Source: Candidatus Aldehydirespirator sp. (lineage in GTDB: Bacteria > Actinomycetota > Acidimicrobiia > Acidimicrobiales > Aldehydirespiratoraceae). From it: a DNA stretch of 64,000 nt. This document shows, one piece after another, positions 14,816 through 62,081 of the stretch (its first letter is position 1; the number at the start of each line of letters is the position of its first letter). The notes beneath the pieces were generated by a model. The model saw only the letters and a list, made by a program, of their open reading frames with translations. It had not been told where the DNA came from and made no database searches. A program made the translations under genes and the position numbers. The stretch lies in NCBI GenBank assembly GCA_965261105.1, contig CBDHCM010000006.1, forward strand, positions 4,521,839 through 4,585,838, written 5' to 3'.

Positions 14816-15673
14816 GTCGCGACCGATCACGGCGGCCAGCGCCGCCAGAACGACCGCACCGCCGATGGCTTGGGTGGCCCTGATCGGCTCGTCCACGAAG
14901 ATGGCGGCTCCGATCATCGACAGGGGAGGTGCGCCCAGCTTTGCCATAGACGCCACTGTGAGCTGCACGTGGCGGAGGGCCCAGTTCATCAAGAGGTGGC
15001 CGGTTCCCGGCACCGCCAGCAGAGCGGCGACCCAGACCAAGTCGTTGAAGGTCGGCACGAACAGATCACCGCTGGCAGCCGCGACCGGGACGACCACGGC
15101 TAGTCCCACCACCCACATGGCGGTCTGGAACTCCAACGCTCCCACCTTCTGGCGGGCTTCTTTGGCCAGCACGAAGTAGACCCCGAACAGCGCCAGGGCC
15201 AGCCCGGCCAGGGCATCGCCGCGGGCACTCCAGGTGGAGACCGACACCGATCCGTAGAGGACGAGCGCGGTGCCGGCCAGAGCGGCCGTGGCCAGGCCTA
15301 CCAGCCACCCCGAGATGGGCTCGCCGAAGCGTCGGGCGGCCACCGCGAACAGGACCATTGGCAGCAGCGCGCCGATCATGGTGGCGTTGGCGATCGTGGT
15401 CGACTTGAGCGCTTCGTAGAACACGATGGTCCACGCGCCCACGGCGAGCCCCGGTGGGACGCAGGTCCGAAACTGCGGCCATGTGATCCGTCGGCGCCGG
15501 ACGAGCAGGATCGCCGCATACACGAGCACCGCCAACAGGAGTCGCCAGAGAGCGAGAGGGATGGCGTCCAGTCCGGCCTCGCGCACCATGATGTTGCCCG
15601 CCCCCCAGCACGCCACGGCGCTGAAGGCGCTGACCAGCCCCAGTGGGTGCCGCTCGGTCGCCCGGGTTGTCAC
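14777..15673 (-). CDS. EamA/DMT-family transporter
   Basis: 298 aa, about ten hydrophobic helices in two EamA-like halves (GAGNIMVREAG... / ...GTGHLLMNWALRHV). GTG start lies inside a tandem repeat. Confidence 0.8.
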   Translation of the reverse strand: MTTRATERHPLGLVSAFSAVACWGAGNIMVREAGLDAIPLALWRLLLAVLVYAAILLVRRRRITWPQFRTCVPPGLAVGAWTIVFYEALKSTTIANATMIGALLPMVLFAVAARRFGEPISGWLVGLATAALAGTALVLYGSVSVSTWSARGDALAGLALALFGVYFVLAKEARQKVGALEFQTAMWVVGLAVVVPVAAASGDLFVPTFNDLVWVAALLAVPGTGHLLMNWALRHVQLTVASMAKLGAPPLSMIGAAIFVDEPIRATQAIGGAVVLAALAAVIGRDLQLHARDTAGLP

Positions 15674-46729: not shown

Positions 46730-47452
46730 GTGGCGCAGGTGTCAGACCGCCTCTACTTCCGCCAGCTGCTGTCGGGGCGCGACTTTGCGGCCGGCGACGG
46801 GCTGGCCCGCCAGATGGTGAACTTCGTGTACGCCGTCGGCGATCGCCACACCGGCCAGGCCGTGCTCGTCGACCCTGCCTACGACACCGGCGGGCTGCTC
46901 GACCTGCTGGAGGCCGACGGCATGGCCTGCACCGGCGTGCTGGCCACCCACTACCACCCCGACCATGTGGGCGGCCAGATGATGGGCTTCGACATCGAGG
47001 GCGTCAGCCGGCTGCTGGAGCGGGTGTCGGTTCCGATCCACGTTCAGGCTGCCGAGGCCGATCTGGTGAAGAAGGTGACCGGCCTGGACGACGACTGCCT
47101 GGTCAGCCATGCCTCTGGCGACGTGTTGACCGTCGGCGCGGTCACCATCGAGCTCATCGCCACGCCGGGCCACACCCCCGGCAGCCAGTGCTTTCTGGTG
47201 GACGGCCGGCTGGTGGCCGGCGACACGCTCTTCCTGGAGGGCTGCGGCCGTATGGACCTTCCCGGCTCGGATCCGGCCCAGATGTACGAGAGCCTCACCA
47301 CAAGGCTGGCCCGGGTGCCCGACGACGCCGTGCTGTACCCCGGCCACCGCTACTCGCTGGAGTCGTCGGCCACCATGGGCATCACCCGCGAGCGCAACCA
47401 GGTGTTCCGCATACCCGGTCGCGACCAGTGGCTCGCCGCCTTCGCCGGCTGA
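46730..47452 (+). CDS. MBL-fold metallo-hydrolase (glyoxalase-II-like)
   Basis: LATHYHPDHVGG metal motif, ATPGHTPGS, FLEGCGRMD. Confidence 0.85.
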   Translation: MAQVSDRLYFRQLLSGRDFAAGDGLARQMVNFVYAVGDRHTGQAVLVDPAYDTGGLLDLLEADGMACTGVLATHYHPDHVGGQMMGFDIEGVSRLLERVSVPIHVQAAEADLVKKVTGLDDDCLVSHASGDVLTVGAVTIELIATPGHTPGSQCFLVDGRLVAGDTLFLEGCGRMDLPGSDPAQMYESLTTRLARVPDDAVLYPGHRYSLESSATMGITRERNQVFRIPGRDQWLAAFAG

Positions 47453-47462
47453 CGGCAACTGC

Positions 47463-47564
47463 GGCTCGTCTACTTGTCGTCCGCCGACGAGGCGATGGCT
47501 CGTCTACTCGTCGTCCGCCGACGAGGCGATGGCTCGTCTACTTGTCGTCCGCCGACGAGGCCAT
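47463..47564. repeat. 3 x 34-bp tandem repeat, each unit a GC hairpin
   Basis: ggctcgtctact(t/c)gtcgtccgccgacgaggc(g/c)at three times. Each contains cgtcg-tccgc-cgacg. Starts 11 nt after the MBL stop. Confidence 0.9.
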
Positions 47565-47631
47565 TCGAACCGACGCCTGGGAGCGAGCATCAGCGGGCTG
47601 CCGCAACGCCTGCTTGCTGTAGCCTGACTCT

Positions 47632-49089
47632 GTGAGCATTTCAGTCGAGTTATCCAATCTCGGGCCTCTACGCTCCGCCTCGCTGGAATTGGCGGACTTG
47701 ACGCTGCTCGTCGGCGAGAACAACACCGGTAAGACTTTCTTCGCCACGGTTCTGCATCGCCTTCTCAATAGTGCGCCCACTGCGCCTTGGTCACAGAGAA
47801 TCCGACCGGACGACACGCCGGTTCAAGTCAGAGACTGGATAACGGAGGTGCTCGATGATCCGGGCGGCGATGTGTCGGCGTCCAGCACCTGCGCCTTCGT
47901 GCCGAACGACAGCACCTCAAGATGGGCCAGGAAACTGACGAAGGACATCTTGGAGGCTTACGGTGATAGCGTCCGATACGACATCACGTACGCCTTTGGT
48001 GCAGAAGCATCTCGTTTGCGGCGAAGGACAGCGAGCAGGCACGCCTCTGGCTGCTATCTTCGGATATGCAATTCACATCCCAATTGGGAAGTCGAGATCA
48101 GATTTGATTCGAAATTGGTAACTGTAACGCCTCCTGATCCGCAGTCTTGGCTCATTCATGCCCTCGACCCGGATGAGATTCGCAAGACACCTCAAACATA
48201 TTCCCGACTGCGTCGTGCTTCATCTTTACGAGTTTCTGAGCATCTTGGCTATTCTCCCGTCGCGCTAAATTCATTGGTCAATTCTGCGTTGTTCGGTTCG
48301 TGGCCGCGCAACGCGATCCATTTGCCAGCCGATCGGACCGGTATTATTCAGAGCCACAATGTTCTAGCTGGTGCTACAGCTCGACAAGCAGCGAGAGCAG
48401 GTATCCGACCAATCGAGATTGAAACGCTACCCGGAACCTCTGCGGACTTTCTGTCATTGGTGCTTGAGATCCCCGAGGGAATGTCATACGCGACGGGTCG
48501 GACATCAAGATTCTCTCAGATTGTAGGTGAATTCGAGCAGGACATGCGGGCAGCCATCGAGATAGATCAGAGAGCAGACGGTATGGATGCGATAGTTGCT
48601 GTAACGTCCGAGGGGCGTTTCCCTATGGCACGGGCATCTTCGATGTTGTCCGAACTAGCACCTCTAATTCTAGTCTTGAAGTCGCCACACATTCTTGTTG
48701 ATCATTTGACGATAGATGAACCCGAGGCGCATCTTCACCCTGCAATGCAGATCCGCGTTGCGTCGTTCTTGGCAACTCTAGCAAACCAAGATGTCAGCGT
48801 CGTGTTGACCACTCATTCTGACTTCTTTGTGTCACAGTTTAACAACATGATGAGACTAAATGAGTTGTCTGGTTCGGGTAAGTCGAAATCCTACAACTTT
48901 CCTAGGCTAGATCGCTCAAGAGTTCGTGCACTCCGGTTTTCGCGAGAGAACGGGTGGTGCGTAGCGCGGACGTTGGAGCCGGACCGCGTCGATGGTATCG
49001 ATGAATCGACCTTCACGAGGGTCATGAGATCGCAGTTTAGCGAGACAGCTAGACTTGTGAACGAGTTGCTAGAGACTCACGAAGAATAG
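47632..49089 (+). CDS. ABC-type (AAA_15/21-like) ATPase, candidate defence ATPase
   Basis: Walker A LLVGENNTGKTF, LPADRTGI, signature-like ASSMLSELAP, Walker B/D-loop LTIDEPEAHLHP, H-loop LTTHSDFF. Visibly AT-richer codon usage. Confidence 0.8.
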   Translation: MSISVELSNLGPLRSASLELADLTLLVGENNTGKTFFATVLHRLLNSAPTAPWSQRIRPDDTPVQVRDWITEVLDDPGGDVSASSTCAFVPNDSTSRWARKLTKDILEAYGDSVRYDITYAFGAEASRLRRRTASRHASGCYLRICNSHPNWEVEIRFDSKLVTVTPPDPQSWLIHALDPDEIRKTPQTYSRLRRASSLRVSEHLGYSPVALNSLVNSALFGSWPRNAIHLPADRTGIIQSHNVLAGATARQAARAGIRPIEIETLPGTSADFLSLVLEIPEGMSYATGRTSRFSQIVGEFEQDMRAAIEIDQRADGMDAIVAVTSEGRFPMARASSMLSELAPLILVLKSPHILVDHLTIDEPEAHLHPAMQIRVASFLATLANQDVSVVLTTHSDFFVSQFNNMMRLNELSGSGKSKSYNFPRLDRSRVRALRFSRENGWCVARTLEPDRVDGIDESTFTRVMRSQFSETARLVNELLETHEE

Positions 49090-49096
49090 TTCCAAG

Positions 49097-49624
49097 GTGA
49101 ACCCGGATCCAGAGTCGTCGCGCTGTTCAGACGATAGATGTCAAGTTTGTCGGCTGTATTCGCAACTCCGATTCGACGGTGCTGAGCCTGTCGCGTTACA
49201 AGATATTCGTGAACATTCATGTCAGCTTAACGTTCACTTTAGTGGTGATCACAAGTGTATACACGGACTGCGCTTAGATGTGCAGAGCGCCAAGTTTCGG
49301 CGTGTCGCGAGGGGCAAGAGCAGAAGAATGTGTGACTTTGCTGTCTTAGCGCATCGTAGGAAAGTTGCTCATCTTGCGGCAATCGAGCTAAAGAGTGGAG
49401 CGGCAGATCCCGAGGATATTGAACAACTCAAAGAAGGTCTAGATCTGCTGCATAGCTACTTCGATTACGACGGACCCGAGCCGCGACTGGTAGCCTATTT
49501 TGTAGTAGGAAAAGAAGCGGAGAGGCTTGGGTTCGCCCTTCGAGACAGGCTCAGCACTCTGAGGTTCGGATCAAGGCCAGTCAAGCTAGAGATTCGAATT
49601 TGCGGTGAGTCCGTGCATCTATAG
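49097..49624 (+). CDS. small protein with a PD-(D/E)xK-like motif and an N-terminal Cys cluster
   Basis: 175 aa, 7 nt after the ATPase stop. CSDDRCQVC near the N-terminus. MCDFAVLAHRRKVAHLAAIELKSG fits D...E-x-K spacing. GTG start uncertain. Confidence 0.5.
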   Translation: MNPDPESSRCSDDRCQVCRLYSQLRFDGAEPVALQDIREHSCQLNVHFSGDHKCIHGLRLDVQSAKFRRVARGKSRRMCDFAVLAHRRKVAHLAAIELKSGAADPEDIEQLKEGLDLLHSYFDYDGPEPRLVAYFVVGKEAERLGFALRDRLSTLRFGSRPVKLEIRICGESVHL

Positions 49625-49699
49625 ACAAGTTGCGTTTCTGGCATCTTGAGTGGTGTATTCGCTGCAATCGGCCTTTCCGGCTAGCCGAATTCTTGCGTG

Positions 49700-49836
49700 T
49701 CGTTGCTGGCGACACGCTGCTCCTGGAGGGCTGCGGACGCATGGACGGTGAACTCCATCGGTGGATGCGACAGAGTGGTGTTCCGCGTTCCGGACCGCGA
49801 GCGCTTGGCTCGCCGCCTTCGCCGCTTGACGGCAAC
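49700..49836 (+). pseudogene. remnant copy of the MBL-hydrolase 3' end
   Basis: gctggcgacacgctgctcctggagggctgcggacgcatggac and ggtgttccgc...ggctcgccgccttcgccgcttgacggcaac match 47211-47258 and 47396-47459. The intervening ~135 bp is missing. Confidence 0.8.
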
Positions 49837-55648: not shown

Positions 55649-57844
55649 CTAGGCGCCGGCGCCGGCGTCGCGGGCTTCGACGGCCTCCAGCACGTGCAGG
55701 GCTATGTCGGCGACCTTGACGGAATCCTCGTCCACTCCCGCGGCCCGCACCCCGTCGTCCATCATGATGTAGCAGAACGGGCAGGCGGTGGCGATGCGCG
55801 ACGCGCCGGTGCCGAGCAGCTCCCGGGAGCGCTCGTCGTTCACCTTGGTGCCGATCGTCTCCTCCATCCACATGCGGGCCCCGCCCGCGCCGCAGCACAT
55901 CCCGTTGGTGCCGTTGCGGGGGGCCTCCACCAGATCGATCCCGCCCAGGGAGCCGAGCACCCGCCGGGGGGCCAGGTACACGTCGTTGTGGCGGCCCAGA
56001 TAGCAGCTGTCGTGGTAGACCACCCGCTCCTCGAGGGTGGCGCCGTCGAGGTCCAGCCGACCCTCGGCCACCAGCGTGTCCAGCAGCTGGCTGTGGTGGA
56101 CGACCTCGTAGTGGCCGCCGAGCTGTGGGTACTCGTTGGCGAGGGTGTTGAAGCAGTGGGGGCACTGGGTGACGATCTTGCGCACCCCCATGGAGTTGAG
56201 GGTCTCGATGTTGGCCGAGGCCAGCATCTGGAACAGGTACTCGTTGCCGGAGCGCCTCGCCGAGTCGCCGGTGCAGTTCTCGGCCGGGCCGAGGATGGCG
56301 AAGTCGATCCCGGCCCGCTCCATGAGCTGGGCCATGGCTCTGGTGACCTTCTTGTTCTTGTCGTCGAAGGAGCCCGCGCAGCCAACCCAGTACAGATACT
56401 CGGCGTCGAGGGGGTCGCCGCCGGCCACAACCCGCACCCCGTCGAGGTCCCGGGCCCAGTCGGCTCGCTCGGTCTGGCTCATCGACCACGGGTTGGACGA
56501 GTTCTCCATGCCCCGGAAGGCCTGGCCCAACTCCGAGGGGAAGTCGCTCTCCATCAGGGTGAGGTAGCGGCGCATGTCGAGGATCTTGTCGAGGATCTCG
56601 ATGTTGACCGGGCAGATCTCGTCGCAGGCCCTGCACGACGTGCACGCCCACAGCTCCTCGTTGCTGATCCGCTCGAACATCCAGTTGGCCGGCACCTTCA
56701 CCTCGGCCTCGCCGGTGCCCAGCGGCGGCGAGGTGGGCGGATTGCCGGTGCGGGCCATGATCTCGCCCGTCTTGAGCACGATCTCGCGGGGGTCGAGGGG
56801 CTTGCCGGTGGCGTGGGCCGGGCACACCGAGGTGCAGCGCCCGCACATGGTGCAGGCGTCAGTGTCGAGGAGCTGCTTCCACGAGAAGTCCTCGACCACC
56901 GAGGCGCCGAAGGTCTCCAGCTCGGTGTCGCCCTCCACCAGGTTGGGCATGGGGCGCATGGCGCCCTTGGGGCGGTCGCGGTGGTGCAGGTACATGTTCA
57001 GCGGCGACGTGAACATATGGCGCAGCATGGTGGTGGGCAGGATCACCAGGAAGGCCACGAACGCGACCACATGGGCCACCCACCACGCCTGGTGCCAGCC
57101 GTGCACCGCGCCTCCGTCGACGAGGGTGGCCAGCGGGTAGCCGATGAAGCTCCAGCGCTCGTGGTCGGGCAGGCCGTCGGCCGCAATGCGGAACGCCTCC
57201 GCGCCGAAGCCGGTCACGCCGATGGCCAGCAGGACGGCGCCGATGACCGCGTGCTCGGGCCGGGTCTTGATGCGGATGCGGTAGGGCCGCCACGGCGGCG
57301 GGCCGAAGCGGCGCACGATGGCCCACACCACCCCCACCACGAACATCGCCCCGGCGGCGTCGCCCACCGCGGAGTAGGCCCGGTAGACGTCGCCGTGCAG
57401 GAACTTGAGCCCGCCGGGGAGCTGGTGGTTGACCTCCAGGGTGGTGGTCACCCCCAGCAGGATCAGGAAGCTGAAGTAGATGAGCGAGTGCATCACCCCG
57501 GCGCCGGGCTCCCGAAGCAGGGTCCGCATGTAGACACCGGCCCGGAAGTCGGCCATGCGGTGCTTGGCGTTGTGCACCGTGGTGCGGCGGTTGTCGGGCC
57601 GGCCCCGCTGCCAGTTCTTCACCCGGTGGGCGAACAGGACCGCCCCGTACACCAGCAGCACGGGGATGATCGTGTAGAAGGCGACCTTCAGCGGGGCGGG
57701 GATGTTTCCGAACACCTCGCGGGTGATCGGGCTGTCGTCGTGGAAGCCGGCGAGGCCCGCCACGATGCCCGACAGGGCCGTGAACAGCGCGATGGCCACG
57801 CCGAGGGCGACGACCAGATGGTGGGGCTTGATCCGGATCCGCAT
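55649..57844 (-). CDS. membrane-anchored (Fe-S)-binding oxidoreductase (heterodisulfide-reductase-related)
   Basis: N-terminal polytopic domain, two ferredoxin-like Cys motifs (CTMCGRCTSVCP, CTSCRACDEICP), and two Cys-rich CCG-type regions. Confidence 0.8.
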   Translation of the reverse strand: MRIRIKPHHLVVALGVAIALFTALSGIVAGLAGFHDDSPITREVFGNIPAPLKVAFYTIIPVLLVYGAVLFAHRVKNWQRGRPDNRRTTVHNAKHRMADFRAGVYMRTLLREPGAGVMHSLIYFSFLILLGVTTTLEVNHQLPGGLKFLHGDVYRAYSAVGDAAGAMFVVGVVWAIVRRFGPPPWRPYRIRIKTRPEHAVIGAVLLAIGVTGFGAEAFRIAADGLPDHERWSFIGYPLATLVDGGAVHGWHQAWWVAHVVAFVAFLVILPTTMLRHMFTSPLNMYLHHRDRPKGAMRPMPNLVEGDTELETFGASVVEDFSWKQLLDTDACTMCGRCTSVCPAHATGKPLDPREIVLKTGEIMARTGNPPTSPPLGTGEAEVKVPANWMFERISNEELWACTSCRACDEICPVNIEILDKILDMRRYLTLMESDFPSELGQAFRGMENSSNPWSMSQTERADWARDLDGVRVVAGGDPLDAEYLYWVGCAGSFDDKNKKVTRAMAQLMERAGIDFAILGPAENCTGDSARRSGNEYLFQMLASANIETLNSMGVRKIVTQCPHCFNTLANEYPQLGGHYEVVHHSQLLDTLVAEGRLDLDGATLEERVVYHDSCYLGRHNDVYLAPRRVLGSLGGIDLVEAPRNGTNGMCCGAGGARMWMEETIGTKVNDERSRELLGTGASRIATACPFCYIMMDDGVRAAGVDEDSVKVADIALHVLEAVEARDAGAGA

Positions 57845-57874
57845 GGCGCCGCGACACTACTCGCCGCGCCCGCC

Positions 57875-58006
57875 TCAGGTCACAGAGGGACCGCGTTCGG
57901 CTTGGGCGGCTACCTCGGCTGCGGCTGCCGCAGCGGCGGCGGGATCGAGAGCGCGCTCCAGCGGGTGCTTCGGCTCCACCGGGAACCATGTCTCCGCCGA
58001 GCACGT
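57875..58006 (-). pseudogene. remnant copy of the gpmA 3' end
   Basis: Reverse strand reads VEPKHPLERALDPAAAAAAAAEVAAQAERGPSVT-stop versus the intact gpmA end IEPRHPLERALDPAAAAAAAAEVAAQAGRPA-stop. DNA similarity runs from 57898 to 58006 against 61335-61437. Confidence 0.8.
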
Positions 58007-58036
58007 TGAGGGGGACCCGGCTTCAGCAGCAGTGGA

Positions 58037-60220
58037 TCACCGCACCACCCTCACGACCCGCGCCCGCTCGGCCTTCGGGTGCACGGTGAGCCAGTGCTCG
58101 TGTGCCCAGGCGTCCACATCCTGGTCGGGGAGTTCGAGCACTAGGGCCGTGGTGTGGCAGTCGGCGCACCATGCCATGAGCACTCCGTTCCTCAACCCCC
58201 AGGTGATGTCACAGACCAAAGTAGTCGTGGCGTCACCGCTTGGCGGTTGGAGAGGACGTTTGCTCAGCAGCGTGTTGACGGACTCCTCAACGGACTGACC
58301 GACCCCGCTCTCGACTAGCTGCTTGCGTATGTTCGCTCGCATCGACCCGTGAGCCTTTGAGGGTTTGATCTCCAATCCGGAGACGAACTGCTCGGCTCGG
58401 CCTCCGAGGTCGGCCAGGGTTATGTGAAGCTCGTCGGTGGCGTCGTAGAGAGGTATCGGCAAATTCCACAGGTGCGAGCTGATGTGGCGTCCGCCGCCCT
58501 TGCCGGAGGTCATGAAGGGTTCCACGGCCTTCGTGACGGTCACGCTGTTGAGGATGCTGCACATGTAGCGGGCCTCCTCCACTGATCGTGCAGCAGCCCA
58601 GTTGAGTTGATGTTCCACGATTGCCTGCTCGTCGGTAATCCGACAGGCGGTGACGTGCATCCCGGATGCTCCGTAGACCACGCGGATGGGGGCGATGGGA
58701 AACTGGGAGGTCAGCTTGCGGTAGTGATCGATTGACTGATCCAAGCTGAGGTCACTCTTGCTGTGCTCGTCGGTAAGTCGGCGGGCCTGCGCCCACCAGC
58801 GCCGTAGCCCGTCGTAGTCCTCGATCTCGTCGTCTCGCATCATCTTGCCCTTACGGAGAGGAAGCACCGCCTCCGCAGGTGTCCGCTGCCAGTAGGGCAT
58901 GACCGACTCGCCCAGCAGAACCCGATGGATGAACTGGGACTCGATGACGCCAGTCATGTCGTCCATCGATTTCCAGTCGCCCTTCGGGTAGGTGCCCCGG
59001 TTGGAGCGGATTGGTCTGCGGCCTTCCCCGACGCCGAGGGGTGGGGTCTTGTCGGGCCGTACGACGATCAAGAGACGTGGGTAGAGGTTCGCCCCGTTCG
59101 CGAAGCGGCCCTTGTAGAGGGACTCGGACTGTTCCTCGTCATCGACGCTGGCCCGCTCTGCCTGTGTCCGGTCGATTGCTGGACGCACGTCGTCCCAGGA
59201 GGCGCTCGGGTCGGGGAGCTTGCCTGACCACCGTTCCACCTCATCGGGCAGAGCGGAGTGCTCTTCTGAGCGTCTGCCGAAGATGACACACGCTGTGCGG
59301 GGGAAGAACCGGTGGCTGATAGGTGAGATGTCCCAGGCGGTGTCGAACGCCACGAGTGTGTGGCCTCCCTTGTTGAGGGGGAACCTCCCGCCACGAAACC
59401 CTGCGGATTGGCCTCTGGTCAGCACACCTGCGGGCATCACGAACCCGAACCGCCCGTTGGGTGCGAGGTACTGCTCCACGGATCGGGTGACGAACAGGTC
59501 GGCGAGGTCTTGGTGCGTGGCGACGTTCCCACCCGCCCACAGCTTGCGTTCTTTGGCCATCAACTGGAACACGGTCTTCATGGAGTCGGTCATGAACCGG
59601 TACGCGAGCCACGGCGGGTTCCCGATCAGCACCGTTCTGCGGTTCTCCTCACGAGCCAGCCACGCGGGTCGAGCGAGGTTCCGCACGTAGTAACCCCAGA
59701 TGTGGTCCCGGCGCTCGTCGTGCAGGCGGCACATCGCCTTGAACGTCGCCTCAACAGTCTCCAGATCAGCCCCCGACAGACCGTGACGCTTGGCTATGTG
59801 AGAGATCGACGGCGCTTCTTCGCCTCGTTGCCGGTTGGTGGCCGACTCCGCGAGGTCGGCCACCAACGCGTCGAAGGTGTCAGCGTCGTCAAGTAGCCGT
59901 TGAGGGAACCGGAGGTGGTCAGCAAACAACTCTGCACCGTCGTCGGTGCTGACGTTGAGCGTCTCAGAAGCGAAGATGTCGCCGCGTTGGCCCCACTGCA
60001 CGCTGTCACCCAAGAACACCGGCACCCGCAACCGTCGCCGGTCAGCAAGCCGCGCTTCCAACTTCACATCGAGGACATCGCCCTCAGTGAGGTTCAACCC
60101 AGAAGCCAACAGCAGCATCCGCACACCCGCCTGCACATCCGCCTCGGTGCGGCTCCGAAGGGCACGATTCGCCAGTCGCCCTGCTAGCTCCCGAAGGTCG
60201 ATCCAGCCTTCCACAGCCAC
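58037..60220 (-). CDS. atypical N6-adenine-methyltransferase-like protein (NPPW motif), possibly degenerate
   Basis: VLIGNPPWLAYRF (motif IV). N-terminus TEADVQAGVRMLLLASGLNLTEGDVLDVKLEARLADRRRL resembles the nuclease-like opening of large actinobacterial RM methylases. I find no FxGxG motif upstream of NPPW. Confidence 0.55.
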   Translation of the reverse strand: MAVEGWIDLRELAGRLANRALRSRTEADVQAGVRMLLLASGLNLTEGDVLDVKLEARLADRRRLRVPVFLGDSVQWGQRGDIFASETLNVSTDDGAELFADHLRFPQRLLDDADTFDALVADLAESATNRQRGEEAPSISHIAKRHGLSGADLETVEATFKAMCRLHDERRDHIWGYYVRNLARPAWLAREENRRTVLIGNPPWLAYRFMTDSMKTVFQLMAKERKLWAGGNVATHQDLADLFVTRSVEQYLAPNGRFGFVMPAGVLTRGQSAGFRGGRFPLNKGGHTLVAFDTAWDISPISHRFFPRTACVIFGRRSEEHSALPDEVERWSGKLPDPSASWDDVRPAIDRTQAERASVDDEEQSESLYKGRFANGANLYPRLLIVVRPDKTPPLGVGEGRRPIRSNRGTYPKGDWKSMDDMTGVIESQFIHRVLLGESVMPYWQRTPAEAVLPLRKGKMMRDDEIEDYDGLRRWWAQARRLTDEHSKSDLSLDQSIDHYRKLTSQFPIAPIRVVYGASGMHVTACRITDEQAIVEHQLNWAAARSVEEARYMCSILNSVTVTKAVEPFMTSGKGGGRHISSHLWNLPIPLYDATDELHITLADLGGRAEQFVSGLEIKPSKAHGSMRANIRKQLVESGVGQSVEESVNTLLSKRPLQPPSGDATTTLVCDITWGLRNGVLMAWCADCHTTALVLELPDQDVDAWAHEHWLTVHPKAERARVVRVVR

Positions 60221-60698
60221 GGAGCGACTCTACGCCAGAGCCTCACCCCCTAACCACGGCACCTCTGCCCCTTACGAACACCGCAAGGATGTTGCTGCCC
60301 ACGTCACCACCGTCCTGATCGCCGCCACCGTCATCGCTTTGGCCGCGACCGGCACCATCTTCGCCCAGTCCAGCTGACGCTTTGGTGGCGTGCCGCTGAT
60401 CACTACGCCCACCAGGCAATCAACTGGATGGTCGACAACGGCATCACACGAAGGGCCCGAAGGGTTGTGGTGACGGGCCGAACCTCTGCCCGGACCGGCC
60501 CGGCCGCTATGCATCGCACGGCAGACCGTATGGGATCTGCGATTCCTTGGAGTCTGGTGCTGGTCAAGCGCTCGACCTGCCGGGCGGAGGGCGATGGCTA
60601 GCCTTCCACAGTGCTACCGTCGGGCTGTGGATGGGAAGAAAGTGATCCTGATGAGCACCGCATCGGCGATGGGGCTTGTTCCCCGATCAGGAGGCAAC

Positions 60699-60773
60699 AT
60701 GACATTGATAGAGTCCGCCGTCTTCGGCGCTGCGTCACCGGCCTCGTCTGTCACCGGCCTCGTCTCTAGATGA
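60699..60773 (+). CDS. possible 24-codon leader ORF
   Basis: caggagg, 5 nt, then ATG 60699: MTLIESAVFGAASPASSVTGLVSR. Contains a 16-bp tandem duplication gtcaccggcctcgtct. Ends 14-23 nt before the next ORF. Confidence 0.2.
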   Translation: MTLIESAVFGAASPASSVTGLVSR

Positions 60774-60786
60774 GTCGGCGCTGACC

Positions 60787-61185
60787 TTGCAGAGGATGCA
60801 TTTCTCCATCCCCGGCTCCCTGGCTCAGCAGCCCTCGTGGATCCACGCGGTCGATATCGAGATCAAGGGACTGCTGTTGCTGTCCGAGGGGTGGGATGGC
60901 ACCGCGGCCTACCCGGTATCCACCGAGGCAGTTAGCGACGCGCGCAGATTGGCGGCAGAGATCTGCGACGCTCTACCAGCACTGCGACATCCGACGGTAA
61001 TGCCGTCGATCGATGGCGGTGTCGTCCTTGAGTGGCATTCGCCTAACCGTCACATTGACTTCACTGTCGGGCGAGAGTCGATCGAAGTCTTCTACGAGGA
61101 TGACGAGCAGGGCTTGGACTGGGACGGACCGCTCCCCGATTCCCCCCTCAACCCTCTCACGTTTCTCGCGGCTCACAACTGGTAG
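60787..61185 (+). CDS. hypothetical protein
   Basis: 132-aa ORF (or from ATG 60796, MHFSIPG). ...SEGWDGTAAYPVSTEAV...PSIDGGVVLEWHSP... No family recognised. Confidence 0.45.
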   Translation: MQRMHFSIPGSLAQQPSWIHAVDIEIKGLLLLSEGWDGTAAYPVSTEAVSDARRLAAEICDALPALRHPTVMPSIDGGVVLEWHSPNRHIDFTVGRESIEVFYEDDEQGLDWDGPLPDSPLNPLTFLAAHNW

Positions 61186-61316
61186 GCGGCTCGGGGATAC
61201 ATGCCGGTCGATGGGGACGAGTCCGTCGGAGGCGGATGCCGTTGATGCTGGCCCCCTGCTTTCGGGCCCACCTGCACGGGCTGACGAGGGCTCAATCCTG
61301 ATGGACACGAATGGGG

Positions 61317-62081
61317 TTACGCAGGGCGGCCGGCTTGGGCGGCTACCTCGGCGGCGGCGGCGGCGGCCGCCGCGGGGTCGAGGGCGCGCTCCAGGGGGTG
61401 CCTGGGTTCGATCGGGAGCATGTCGGGGCCCAGCACGTAGTGCAGCGGCATGCCGGTGGGGATGTTGAGGACGCCGATGTCCTCGTCGGAGATCCGGTCC
61501 AGGTGCTTGGACAGGGCCCGCAGGCTGTTGCCGTGGGCCGAGACCATCACGGTGTGGCCCTTGCGCAGGTCGCCGACGATGGCGTCCCGCCAGTAGGGCA
61601 GCAGCCTGGCGAGCACGTCTTCGAGGCTCTCGGTCAGCGGCACCAGCTCGGGGGAGAGGTCCGCGTAGACCGCCGAGCCGTTGGGGTTGAACTCGTTGTC
61701 GGCGCGGATGGGCGGGGGCGGGGTGTCGTAGCCCCGGCGCCATCGCTGGAGCTGCTCGTCGCCGTGGGCGGCCCGGGTGGCGGCCTTGTCGAGGCCGGTC
61801 AGGTCGCCGTAGTGGCGCTCGTTGAGGCGCCAGCTGCAGTGAACCTCCAGCGAGCCGAGGCCGAGGGCGTCGAGGACGATCTCGGTGGTCTCGGTGGCTC
61901 GCTGAAGAACGGAGGTGTGCACCGCGGCAGGCAGCAGGCCGGCGGCCGCCAGCAGCTCCGCAGCCCGGCGGGCCTCGGCCCGGCCCGTGTCGTCGAGGGG
62001 ACAGTCGTGCCAGCCGGTGAACAGGTTCTTGTCGTTCCACTCGCTGCGGCCGTGGCGCAACAGGATCAGGTCGTGGGCCAT
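61317..62081 (-). CDS. gpmA: 2,3-bisphosphoglycerate-dependent phosphoglycerate mutase
   Basis: MAHDLILLRHGRSEWNDKNLFTGW...RLNERHYG...VSAHGNSLRAL. ATG 62081; the longer track ORF is antisense to dnaK. Confidence 0.93.
   Translation of the reverse strand: MAHDLILLRHGRSEWNDKNLFTGWHDCPLDDTGRAEARRAAELLAAAGLLPAAVHTSVLQRATETTEIVLDALGLGSLEVHCSWRLNERHYGDLTGLDKAATRAAHGDEQLQRWRRGYDTPPPPIRADNEFNPNGSAVYADLSPELVPLTESLEDVLARLLPYWRDAIVGDLRKGHTVMVSAHGNSLRALSKHLDRISDEDIGVLNIPTGMPLHYVLGPDMLPIEPRHPLERALDPAAAAAAAAEVAAQAGRPA

Follow-up and report, generated by a model that had tools for sequence, protein, structure and literature searches.

Why does the 3′ end of gpmA, the gene for phosphoglycerate mutase, occur twice within 3.3 kb in a member of the Acidimicrobiia, and what is the DNA that separates the two copies? 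We examined this question in a stretch of 64,000 nucleotides (hereafter the window; G000:C6:4521839-4585838) from the 4.95-Mb genome of a Candidatus Aldehydirespirator species, G000. A first-pass annotation of the window had described the interval between the two gene ends as a small island without a recombinase. Our best reading is that the stretch at gpmA is a composite, decayed and cargo-only island, resembling a cis-mobilisable element (CIME), that occupies a variable hot spot, and that islands of this kind are already known.

The two copies were recovered by different searches. By blastn, positions 58006-57898 matched 61438-61331 with 81.7% identity over 109 nt (E = 2e-24), and a repeat search paired 57893-57984 with 61326-61417 (83% over 92 nt), which confirms the match that had been noticed between 57898-58006 and 61335-61437. 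We could rule out that the similarity is confined to the low-complexity Ala tract: the two copies agree at 54 of 72 positions ahead of the tract, at 18 of 24 within it and at 23 of 27 beyond it. This last part includes a block of 22 nt (GCCGAGGTAGCCGCCCAAGCCG in gene sense) that is the same in both copies. The features that make up the repeat are as follows, with coordinates counted along the plus strand.

61317-62063, minus strand: intact gpmA (phosphoglycerate mutase), 248 aa as analysed, with a Pfam His_Phos_1 match at 3.9e-30.
61331-61438, minus strand: right copy of the repeat, belonging to the 3′ end of the working gpmA; attL-like junction.
61330-61351, minus strand: the 22-nt identical block, candidate crossover core, from alignments.
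57898-58006, minus strand: left repeat copy, a frame-broken gpmA 3′ remnant, an attR-like junction.
57897-57918, minus strand: second copy of the 22-nt identical block.

The intact gene is 77-90% identical to the single-copy orthologues of 18 congeners, and its final five codons, AGRPA-stop, are unlike the native tail. In the multiple alignment, the remnant reads ...FPVEPKHPLERALDPAAAAAAAAEVAAQAER and then GPSVT-stop on the minus strand, and its frame is broken upstream by a 1-nt insertion (GACATGGTTCCC vs GACAT-GTTCCC), as had been claimed for it. Genome-wide, these two are the only copies of the gpmA end in G000. In a sample of 301 genomes from the order, which included only one congener, a second fragment of the gpmA C-terminus was likewise confined to G000.

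Comparison with relatives identified the intervening DNA as an insertion. In eight congeners (G017, G011, G001, G012, G018, G008, G009, and G002) the gpmA stop codon lies about 45 bp from the start of a gene for an Fe-S oxidoreductase, and the same empty site is found in metagenome contig LXNJ01018918.1 (L131). Because gpmA is followed directly by the oxidoreductase gene in these nine related sequences, the 3.3-kb block is an insertion footprint, and local duplication is excluded. The synteny comparison, which the first-pass annotation had put forward as a check on its integration footprint at gpmA, thus bears that footprint out. The GC content inside approximately 58050-61300 is 60-66%, vs about 70-72% around it, a difference of 6-8% for the block. 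Three further features frame the junctions.

57845-57896, minus strand: native gpmA tail (ERGPSVT-stop) and native spacer to the oxidoreductase gene, collinear with the empty sites.
55649-57844, minus strand: membrane Fe-S oxidoreductase, 731 aa, assigned by Pfam matches (CCG, Fer4, Nitrate_red_gam) and synteny.
61186-61329, minus strand: island-proximal arm (P′-like), comprising the substitute tail of gpmA with its stop codon, and a further ~120 nt.

In a multiple alignment that took in G017, G011, G012, G018, G008, and G009, the right copy tracks the relatives as far as the 22-nt block, continues with GGCCGCCCTGCGTAA, and then passes into island DNA, where 61211-61329 had no match among 39 genus genomes. 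In the left copy, island DNA and a diverged gpmA-like stretch come before the block, and the native tail and spacer come after it, collinear with G017 to the oxidoreductase ATG at 57844; on this native side, blastn query positions 35-196 matched L003 as a single piece. The native tail ERGPSVT-stop therefore lies displaced, 3.3 kb from the intact gpmA, whose AGRPA-stop lies in island DNA. Judged by sequence, the two junctions are attL/attR-like products of a single-crossover (Campbell-type) insertion. A separate observation concerns the 45-bp spacer between gpmA and the oxidoreductase gene (window 57845-57880), in which GGCGAGTAGTGTCGCG, shortly before the oxidoreductase start, is strongly conserved. 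This motif is kept by every island variant and may be a promoter or 5′ leader of the oxidoreductase gene.

The position of the crossover was assessed from the DNA upstream of the 22-nt block. There the right copy is identical to the sister genome G017 at 78 of 85 nt (92%), and the left copy shares 78% identity with the gpmA of its own genome, 80% with G017 and at most 86%, with G012. On the simplest reading, another lineage supplied the left arm together with the island, and the point of crossover, estimated from these alignments, fell in or just before the block. Alternatively, the remnant could be a decayed native end over its full length. The crossover would then have fallen where the homology begins upstream, and the working gpmA would have imported its last ~110 nt. 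This alternative matches the geometry of a second island in the window, at an MBL gene, where the crossover lies at the upstream edge (see below). Moreover, the gpmA remnant of G043 has lineage-specific bases of G043's own gpmA, which a native origin fits better than a foreign one; both points tell against an imported arm. The left arm cannot discriminate between the two readings because it is only 88 nt long.

The gpmA 3′ end is a recurrently reused insertion hot spot in this genus, with at least seven different occupancy states across the genomes examined. G043 carries a different island of about 3 kb between an intact gpmA and a degenerate gpmA-end remnant (L060 446-3445, G043:C1), with a three-gene module, described below, after the remnant. 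Two proteins are encoded in the G043 island, one of 437 aa, whose N-terminus is rich in Glu, Ala, Arg and Gln and resembles a coiled coil, and one of 514 aa of the DUF4041-T5orf172 (MUG113) type. The island, in which no recombinase domain was found, supports the hot-spot use that had been proposed for this site. In G040, a second partial copy of the gpmA tail lies past the module, adjoining the oxidoreductase gene. On metagenome contig LXNI01000833.1, the order is gpmA, an AT-rich motif, the DNA that precedes the type IIG restriction-modification gene of the islands, and a 45-codon stub of that gene.

Two details of the gpmA ends in relatives are recorded here for their own sake. An AT-rich, promoter-like motif follows the gpmA stop in both G003 and LXNI01000833.1 and reads TTGACA ... 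ATTGTCAGATA(A/G)CTT ... GGGTCAGCCTCGC.GCCGGGCT; in G003 it lies within a 544-bp insert (L017 ~14880-14935). We also considered the “ASRPx” gpmA tails of G001, G002, G003, G004, and G006 as element-derived scars and dropped this idea, because L131 shows such a tail arising from the native one by a small indel.

The content between the two copies was as first described, namely a 727-aa open reading frame (ORF) with an NPPW motif, a 132-aa ORF and short ORFs. The features of the cargo are these.

58037-60220, minus strand: 727-aa ORF, in-frame deletion relic of a 1088-aa type IIG enzyme, identified by Pfam, PADLOC and collinearity.
60033-60045, minus strand: deletion junction within the 727-aa relic; it coincides with an imperfect direct repeat of 12 nt (CTGACCG.CG.CG), of which the intact G006 gene has both copies.
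60221-60786, no strand: spacer in place of the relatives' 278-aa gene, from genus and metagenome comparison.
60787-61185, plus strand: 132-aa hypothetical gene, surviving member of a three-gene module.

The label “methylase-like” given to the longest of these ORFs was right about the NPPW motif, and our comparisons correct its identity to that of a type IIG deletion relic. In Pfam, the 727-aa ORF matched Eco57I alone, around NPPW and below the curated cut-off, and it matched the PADLOC model REase_MTase_IIG (PDLC03630) at 9.2e-29 over profile positions 478-770 of 1100. At the same position, G006 has an intact ORF of 1088 aa that matched this model at 8.1e-79 (profile positions 300-773) and gave Pfam matches to N6_Mtase at residues 306-410 and to Eco57I, with MmeI_Mtase below the cut-off. 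The 727-aa ORF aligns in frame to G006 residues 1-66 and 420-1079 with about 85% nucleotide identity. NPPW (motif IV) and the C-terminal part are still present, and approximately residues 56-426 of the intact protein, about 370 codons in all, have been deleted, including the N6_Mtase motif I (S-adenosylmethionine-binding) region. Because the junction sits at a short direct repeat, we attribute the relic to a microhomology deletion.

By its PADLOC and Pfam matches, the intact G006 orthologue, which has both motif I and NPPW, is like the type IIG (MmeI/Eco57I-like) single-polypeptide enzymes, which unite an N-terminal nuclease, a gamma-class N6-adenine methylase and a target-recognition part. 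The window copy is unlike them: its N-terminal third and motif I are missing, it gives no full-length profile match, and it has a C-terminal extension of about 75 aa. The relic enzyme is presumably inactive, and we infer that its function has been lost. At the same site, G035 has a type IIG gene with a different internal deletion (residues 241-1063).

The 132-aa protein shares 66-84% amino acid identity with copies in G006, G043, G035, G040, G014, and G010, and it gave a weak PADLOC match (6.6e-8) to the C-terminal part of PDC-M32A. The module to which it belongs has the order 150-aa gene, 132/156-aa gene and 278-aa gene (NCBIfam TIGR04255). In G006, G035, G040, and G043 this module stands at the present site, with gpmA on one side and the oxidoreductase gene on the other, and in G014 and G010 it lies at other loci; the G000 island is without its 150-aa and 278-aa genes. 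Around the spacer that stands in place of the latter, 60080-60398 is 92% identical to LXNI01000833.1 (L115), and 60272-60660 has no match in the genus. Besides the methylase remnant, no ORF of the island, including the short ORFs between the gpmA-end copies, has a Pfam match.

In a local tree of dnaK and gpmA, G000 groups with G003 and G017, and this group is sister to G001, G002, and G006; given this placement, the distribution of the island is patchy. The divergence of the module and type IIG genes is roughly in step with that of host genes. The island is composite, not a single clean element, and parts of it may be old. Outside the gpmA locus, the 132-aa and 278-aa TIGR04255-family genes recur as an adjacent pair, and distant paralogous pairs (25-40% identity) occur at other loci in at least five congeners (L055-L059, from G044, G017, G003, G002, and G048; also L049-L054). 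This recurrence suggests that the pair may form a conserved two-gene system.

What enzyme, if any, made the junctions? A six-frame Pfam search with PF00589 and PF00239 returned no match in the whole 64-kb window, bearing out the claim that the island lacks a recombinase, and no integration or transfer genes were found among the island ORFs. We nevertheless lean towards a site-specific integrase that made the gpmA junctions and was later lost, leaving a CIME-like relic; in particular, we infer that an integrase rather than host recombination acted at the junctions. Under this account, a horizontally acquired defence island would have entered the last ~40 codons of gpmA by a Campbell-type single crossover, the incoming DNA bringing its own gpmA-like end and the element's integrase using the conserved gpmA end as attB. 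The functional gene is composed of native gpmA, the 22-nt core and a five-codon tail supplied by the island. The other product, next to the Fe-S oxidoreductase gene, is composed of a gpmA-like arm, the core, and the native tail and spacer. Deletion of the recombination module would have followed, so that the relic would keep attL and attR without integration or transfer genes. The cargo has decayed by the deletion in the type IIG gene and by the loss of the 150-aa and 278-aa neighbours of the 132-aa gene.

Several observations weigh against an integrase. No integrase-bearing element using the gpmA end was found, and among the recombinase matches listed for 39 genus genomes, none lies near the gpmA positions known for G001-G018. 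A search of metagenome contigs with a 20-nt core gave 56 matches, of which the two relevant ones, on contigs carrying gpmA, had no recombinase in the sequence examined. The second gpmA end was, as noted, confined to G000 in the sample from the order. To judge from the in-step divergence of its genes, the block may also include old DNA that was inherited vertically and did not arrive with a single incoming element. The homology borne by the element extends ~90 nt upstream of the presumed crossover, where an integrase would not need it to restore the gene. Finally, the assumption that every such island has lost its integrase is less economical because several other recombinase-less cassettes bounded by gene-end repeats are present in G000.

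A possible, if doubtful, explanation is that host recombination, independent of any recombinase of the island, acquired, from a related lineage, a cassette that already lay beside the donor's own gpmA end, anchored by homology. RecA could have joined a circularised fragment by a single crossover, or homology-facilitated illegitimate recombination could have combined a gpmA anchor with a putative microhomology join within the gpmA 3′ region of the recipient; both routes duplicate the gene end without an integrase. That no integrase occurs at the gpmA site in any genome examined fits this explanation, as does the homology itself, which is long and imperfect (~110 nt at 82%) and lies on both sides of the candidate crossover. 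However, a RecA crossover at 82% identity with a perfect block of only 22 nt is expected to be very rare, and the repeated insertion at the exact gpmA terminus in G000, G043, and G040 looks site-specific. Host recombination also leaves the origin of the first unit of cassette plus gene end unexplained.

The other repeat-bounded blocks in G000 bear on the same choice. The MBL island, to which the first-pass annotation had ascribed the same footprint as that at gpmA, was not found in 12 congeners searched. Its remnant equals G017 exactly over 30 nt, and the end of the intact MBL gene differs at 8 of these 30 positions. We therefore regard the remnant, which has an internal deletion of about 170 nt, as native and the working MBL 3′ end (its last ~250 nt) as imported. 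The crossover that fits best at gpmA falls within or close to the 22-nt block, at the opposite end of the homology from that at the MBL gene, as expected if host recombination were free to cross over at any position. When the junctions of the two islands were aligned locally on both strands, the score was no better than for shuffled sequence. The proposed equivalence of the two footprints is thus not borne out: the best-fitting crossovers lie at opposite ends, and the junctions share no att core beyond chance.

We also compared the whole G000 genome with itself, looking for short-range direct repeats round lower-GC blocks in which a gene with high GC at third codon positions ends in one copy. 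The MBL island and the candidate blocks recovered are listed below.

Window 47211-49836: MBL island, with its remnant at 49700-49836.
C6:1994770-1998754: block at a MOSC-domain gene; repeat of 273 nt, 99% identical; cargo AAA_21 ATPase and RloB.
C6:5295-8275: block at a glyoxalase-family gene; repeat of 191 nt, 96% identical; cargo HipA-like and HIRAN proteins.
C6:4184937-4187598: block at a beta-lactamase-family gene; repeat of 175 nt, 95% identical; cargo HTH-Peptidase_M78 protein.
C6:4611727-4612694: block at an AsnC-family regulator gene; repeat of 62 nt; 0.85-kb block with no ORF of at least 150 aa.

No recombinase match was found inside the MOSC, glyoxalase, beta-lactamase or AsnC candidate blocks. 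The repeat-bounded geometry thus recurs in G000, with cargo that is mostly of the defence or toxin-antitoxin type, the additional loci being putative. At the beta-lactamase locus the arrangement goes beyond a simple insertion, because the first 80 nt of its island match a site upstream of the gene in G017. Two further loci, C6:2920372 and C6:3676656, were rejected as core-gene-end islands because transposase ends of insertion sequences (rve) and fragments of reverse transcriptases flank them. When the ends of nine candidate islands were compared, no motif or hairpin was common to them, and the only matches, of 13-15 nt, were at chance level. Since the gpmA and MBL junctions share no core and the island ends share no motif, we found no evidence for the single family of integrase-less islands that had been suggested. 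The use of different target genes with no common core or end motif, and the occurrence of further recombinase-less cassettes such as the MOSC (AAA_21 and RloB) and glyoxalase (HipA-like and HIRAN) candidates, argue for host recombination.

We think it quite improbable that the island is still mobile in trans, as a cis-mobilisable or satellite cassette served by an integrase from elsewhere in the genome or from a co-integrating element. Its attL/attR-like repeats have kept an identical 22-nt block, and the clean empty site of G017 is what precise excision would leave. G000 is rich in tyrosine recombinases, with 54 matches at E ≤ 0.01 and 46 at E ≤ 1e-5, vs 2-21 in 38 congeners, and many of the G000 matches lie on contigs C1-C5. 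Accretion and co-transfer of CIMEs with integrative and conjugative elements have been documented in streptococci (PMC5704250). However, G000 has no other copy of a gpmA-like att sequence, so that no resident element shares the gpmA att, and mobilisation by an element encoded elsewhere, as the first-pass annotation had entertained, is without evidence. The repeats, moreover, are only 82% identical, the remnant is frame-broken and the cargo has decayed, and a scan of metagenome contigs with degenerate exact patterns for attB, attP, attL and attR joints gave no matches. The island is probably immobile today. As to the recombinases of G000 in general, the small contigs C1-C5 are rich in both tyrosine and serine recombinases and may for that reason be plasmids or unplaced mobile DNA. 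Four instances of a recombinase pair, of 474 aa and 746-861 aa, are present on C6, and the genome, at the size given above, is larger than those of congeners (~2.1-4.9 Mb).

That the repeat is a simple local duplication or a low-complexity coincidence is hardly credible, even with a poly-Ala (GCN) tract in a 70% GC genome, as the similarity holds on both sides of the tract at the E-value given above, only one gpmA end and an empty site are seen in relatives, and the intervening DNA is compositionally foreign and homologous to the islands of G006 and G035.

The lambdoid phage 21 and the e14 element insert at the 3′ end of the metabolic gene icd in Escherichia coli and supply a diverged substitute end, with an integrase beside att. 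A displaced partial gene end is left at the far side, and the homology lies downstream of the crossover. Elements of the ICESt1/ICESt3 family, from which CIMEs have derived by decay, integrate in the 3′ end of fda in Streptococcus thermophilus. Like phage 21 and e14, the gpmA island leaves its target gene intact by providing a replacement 3′ end, and the displaced end lies at its far side. Unlike them, it has no tyrosine or serine integrase within it, its substitute amounts to five codons, and its homology lies mostly upstream of the candidate core; the geometry of the MBL island is of the phage 21/e14-at-icd type.

CIMEs are defined as cis-mobilisable elements, decayed from an ICE or IME, flanked by attL and attR and devoid of integration and transfer genes (PMC5704250). 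The gpmA island has attL/attR-like repeats derived from its target site and no integration or transfer genes. It is further like CIMEs in being cargo-only, with direct repeats from the 3′ end of a glycolytic housekeeping gene, a reused site and restriction-modification/defence cargo. It differs from them in that its repeats share no more than 82% identity, that there is no conjugation context, and that the genomes and contigs sampled yielded no integrase-bearing parent with this att. Its host, unlike those of streptococcal CIMEs, is an uncultured and probably sponge-associated member of the Acidimicrobiia.

In outline, the model of island growth by tycheposons in Prochlorococcus has degenerated elements and “flanking DNA from other hosts” accumulate (10.1101/2020.12.28.424599). 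As outlined there, such islands share with the gpmA locus the reuse of one proximal site, scattered partial att copies and defence cargo. Tycheposons themselves are in that outline defined by tyrosine recombinases, those described being at tRNA genes, and the gpmA locus is without a recombinase or a fragment of one. The gpmA island is thus comparable to the growth model only and is not a tycheposon by this definition.

Taken alone, the gpmA island is an ordinary fossil with a dead restriction-modification gene. Its value is that it documents the gpmA 3′ end as a recurrent hot spot in an uncultured, probably sponge-associated genus of Acidimicrobiia. It also shows one genome in which recombinase-less cassettes with gene-end repeats occupy gpmA and MBL, further candidates lying at another two to four genes. 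A broader and improbable proposal is that, in this lineage of Acidimicrobiia, small defence or toxin-antitoxin cassettes move without a dedicated recombinase, each with a copy of the 3′ end of the core gene beside which it lay, and are inserted by host recombination into the corresponding gene of a new host. Such movement would keep the target gene intact and leave a displaced gene-end remnant. It would account for the recombinase-less islands at gpmA and MBL and for the MOSC and glyoxalase candidates, as well as for the refilling of the gpmA site in congeners and the lack of a common att core. Insertion by host recombination would also bear on how defence islands spread without mobility genes.

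The locus further provides a natural decay series of a type IIG enzyme, from the intact G006 gene to the different internal deletions in G000 and G035. Elsewhere in G000, where no intact type IIG copy was found in the genome, a second truncated open copy lies at C6:2470576-2472541 (L082 8566-10530, minus strand) and encodes 654 aa (residues 431-1079). It is 91% identical in nucleotides to the window copy, and is cut within ~25 nt of the deletion junction of the latter. Three ORFs of 740, 434, and 393 aa stand in tandem about 2 kb away, and PF00589 matches were obtained for two of them. Both truncated copies keep the same C-terminal 650 aa open, and a separate N-terminal fragment (residues 1-232) is found at G000:C6:4142186-4142878. 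In other Acidimicrobiia, neither gpmA, nor the three-gene module, nor an adjacent integrase was found among the ORFs scanned around type IIG homologues (79-85%), which sit in unrelated low-GC defence neighbourhoods. No counterpart to the last ~75 aa of the type IIG ORF in G000 and G006 (window 58037-58260) is present in homologues from other phyla, which match up to residue 1013 only. The segment coding this part in G017 lies about 700 bp downstream of the gene (L030 13732-13932). From these alignments, the C-terminal ~75 aa would appear to be a fused small downstream ORF.

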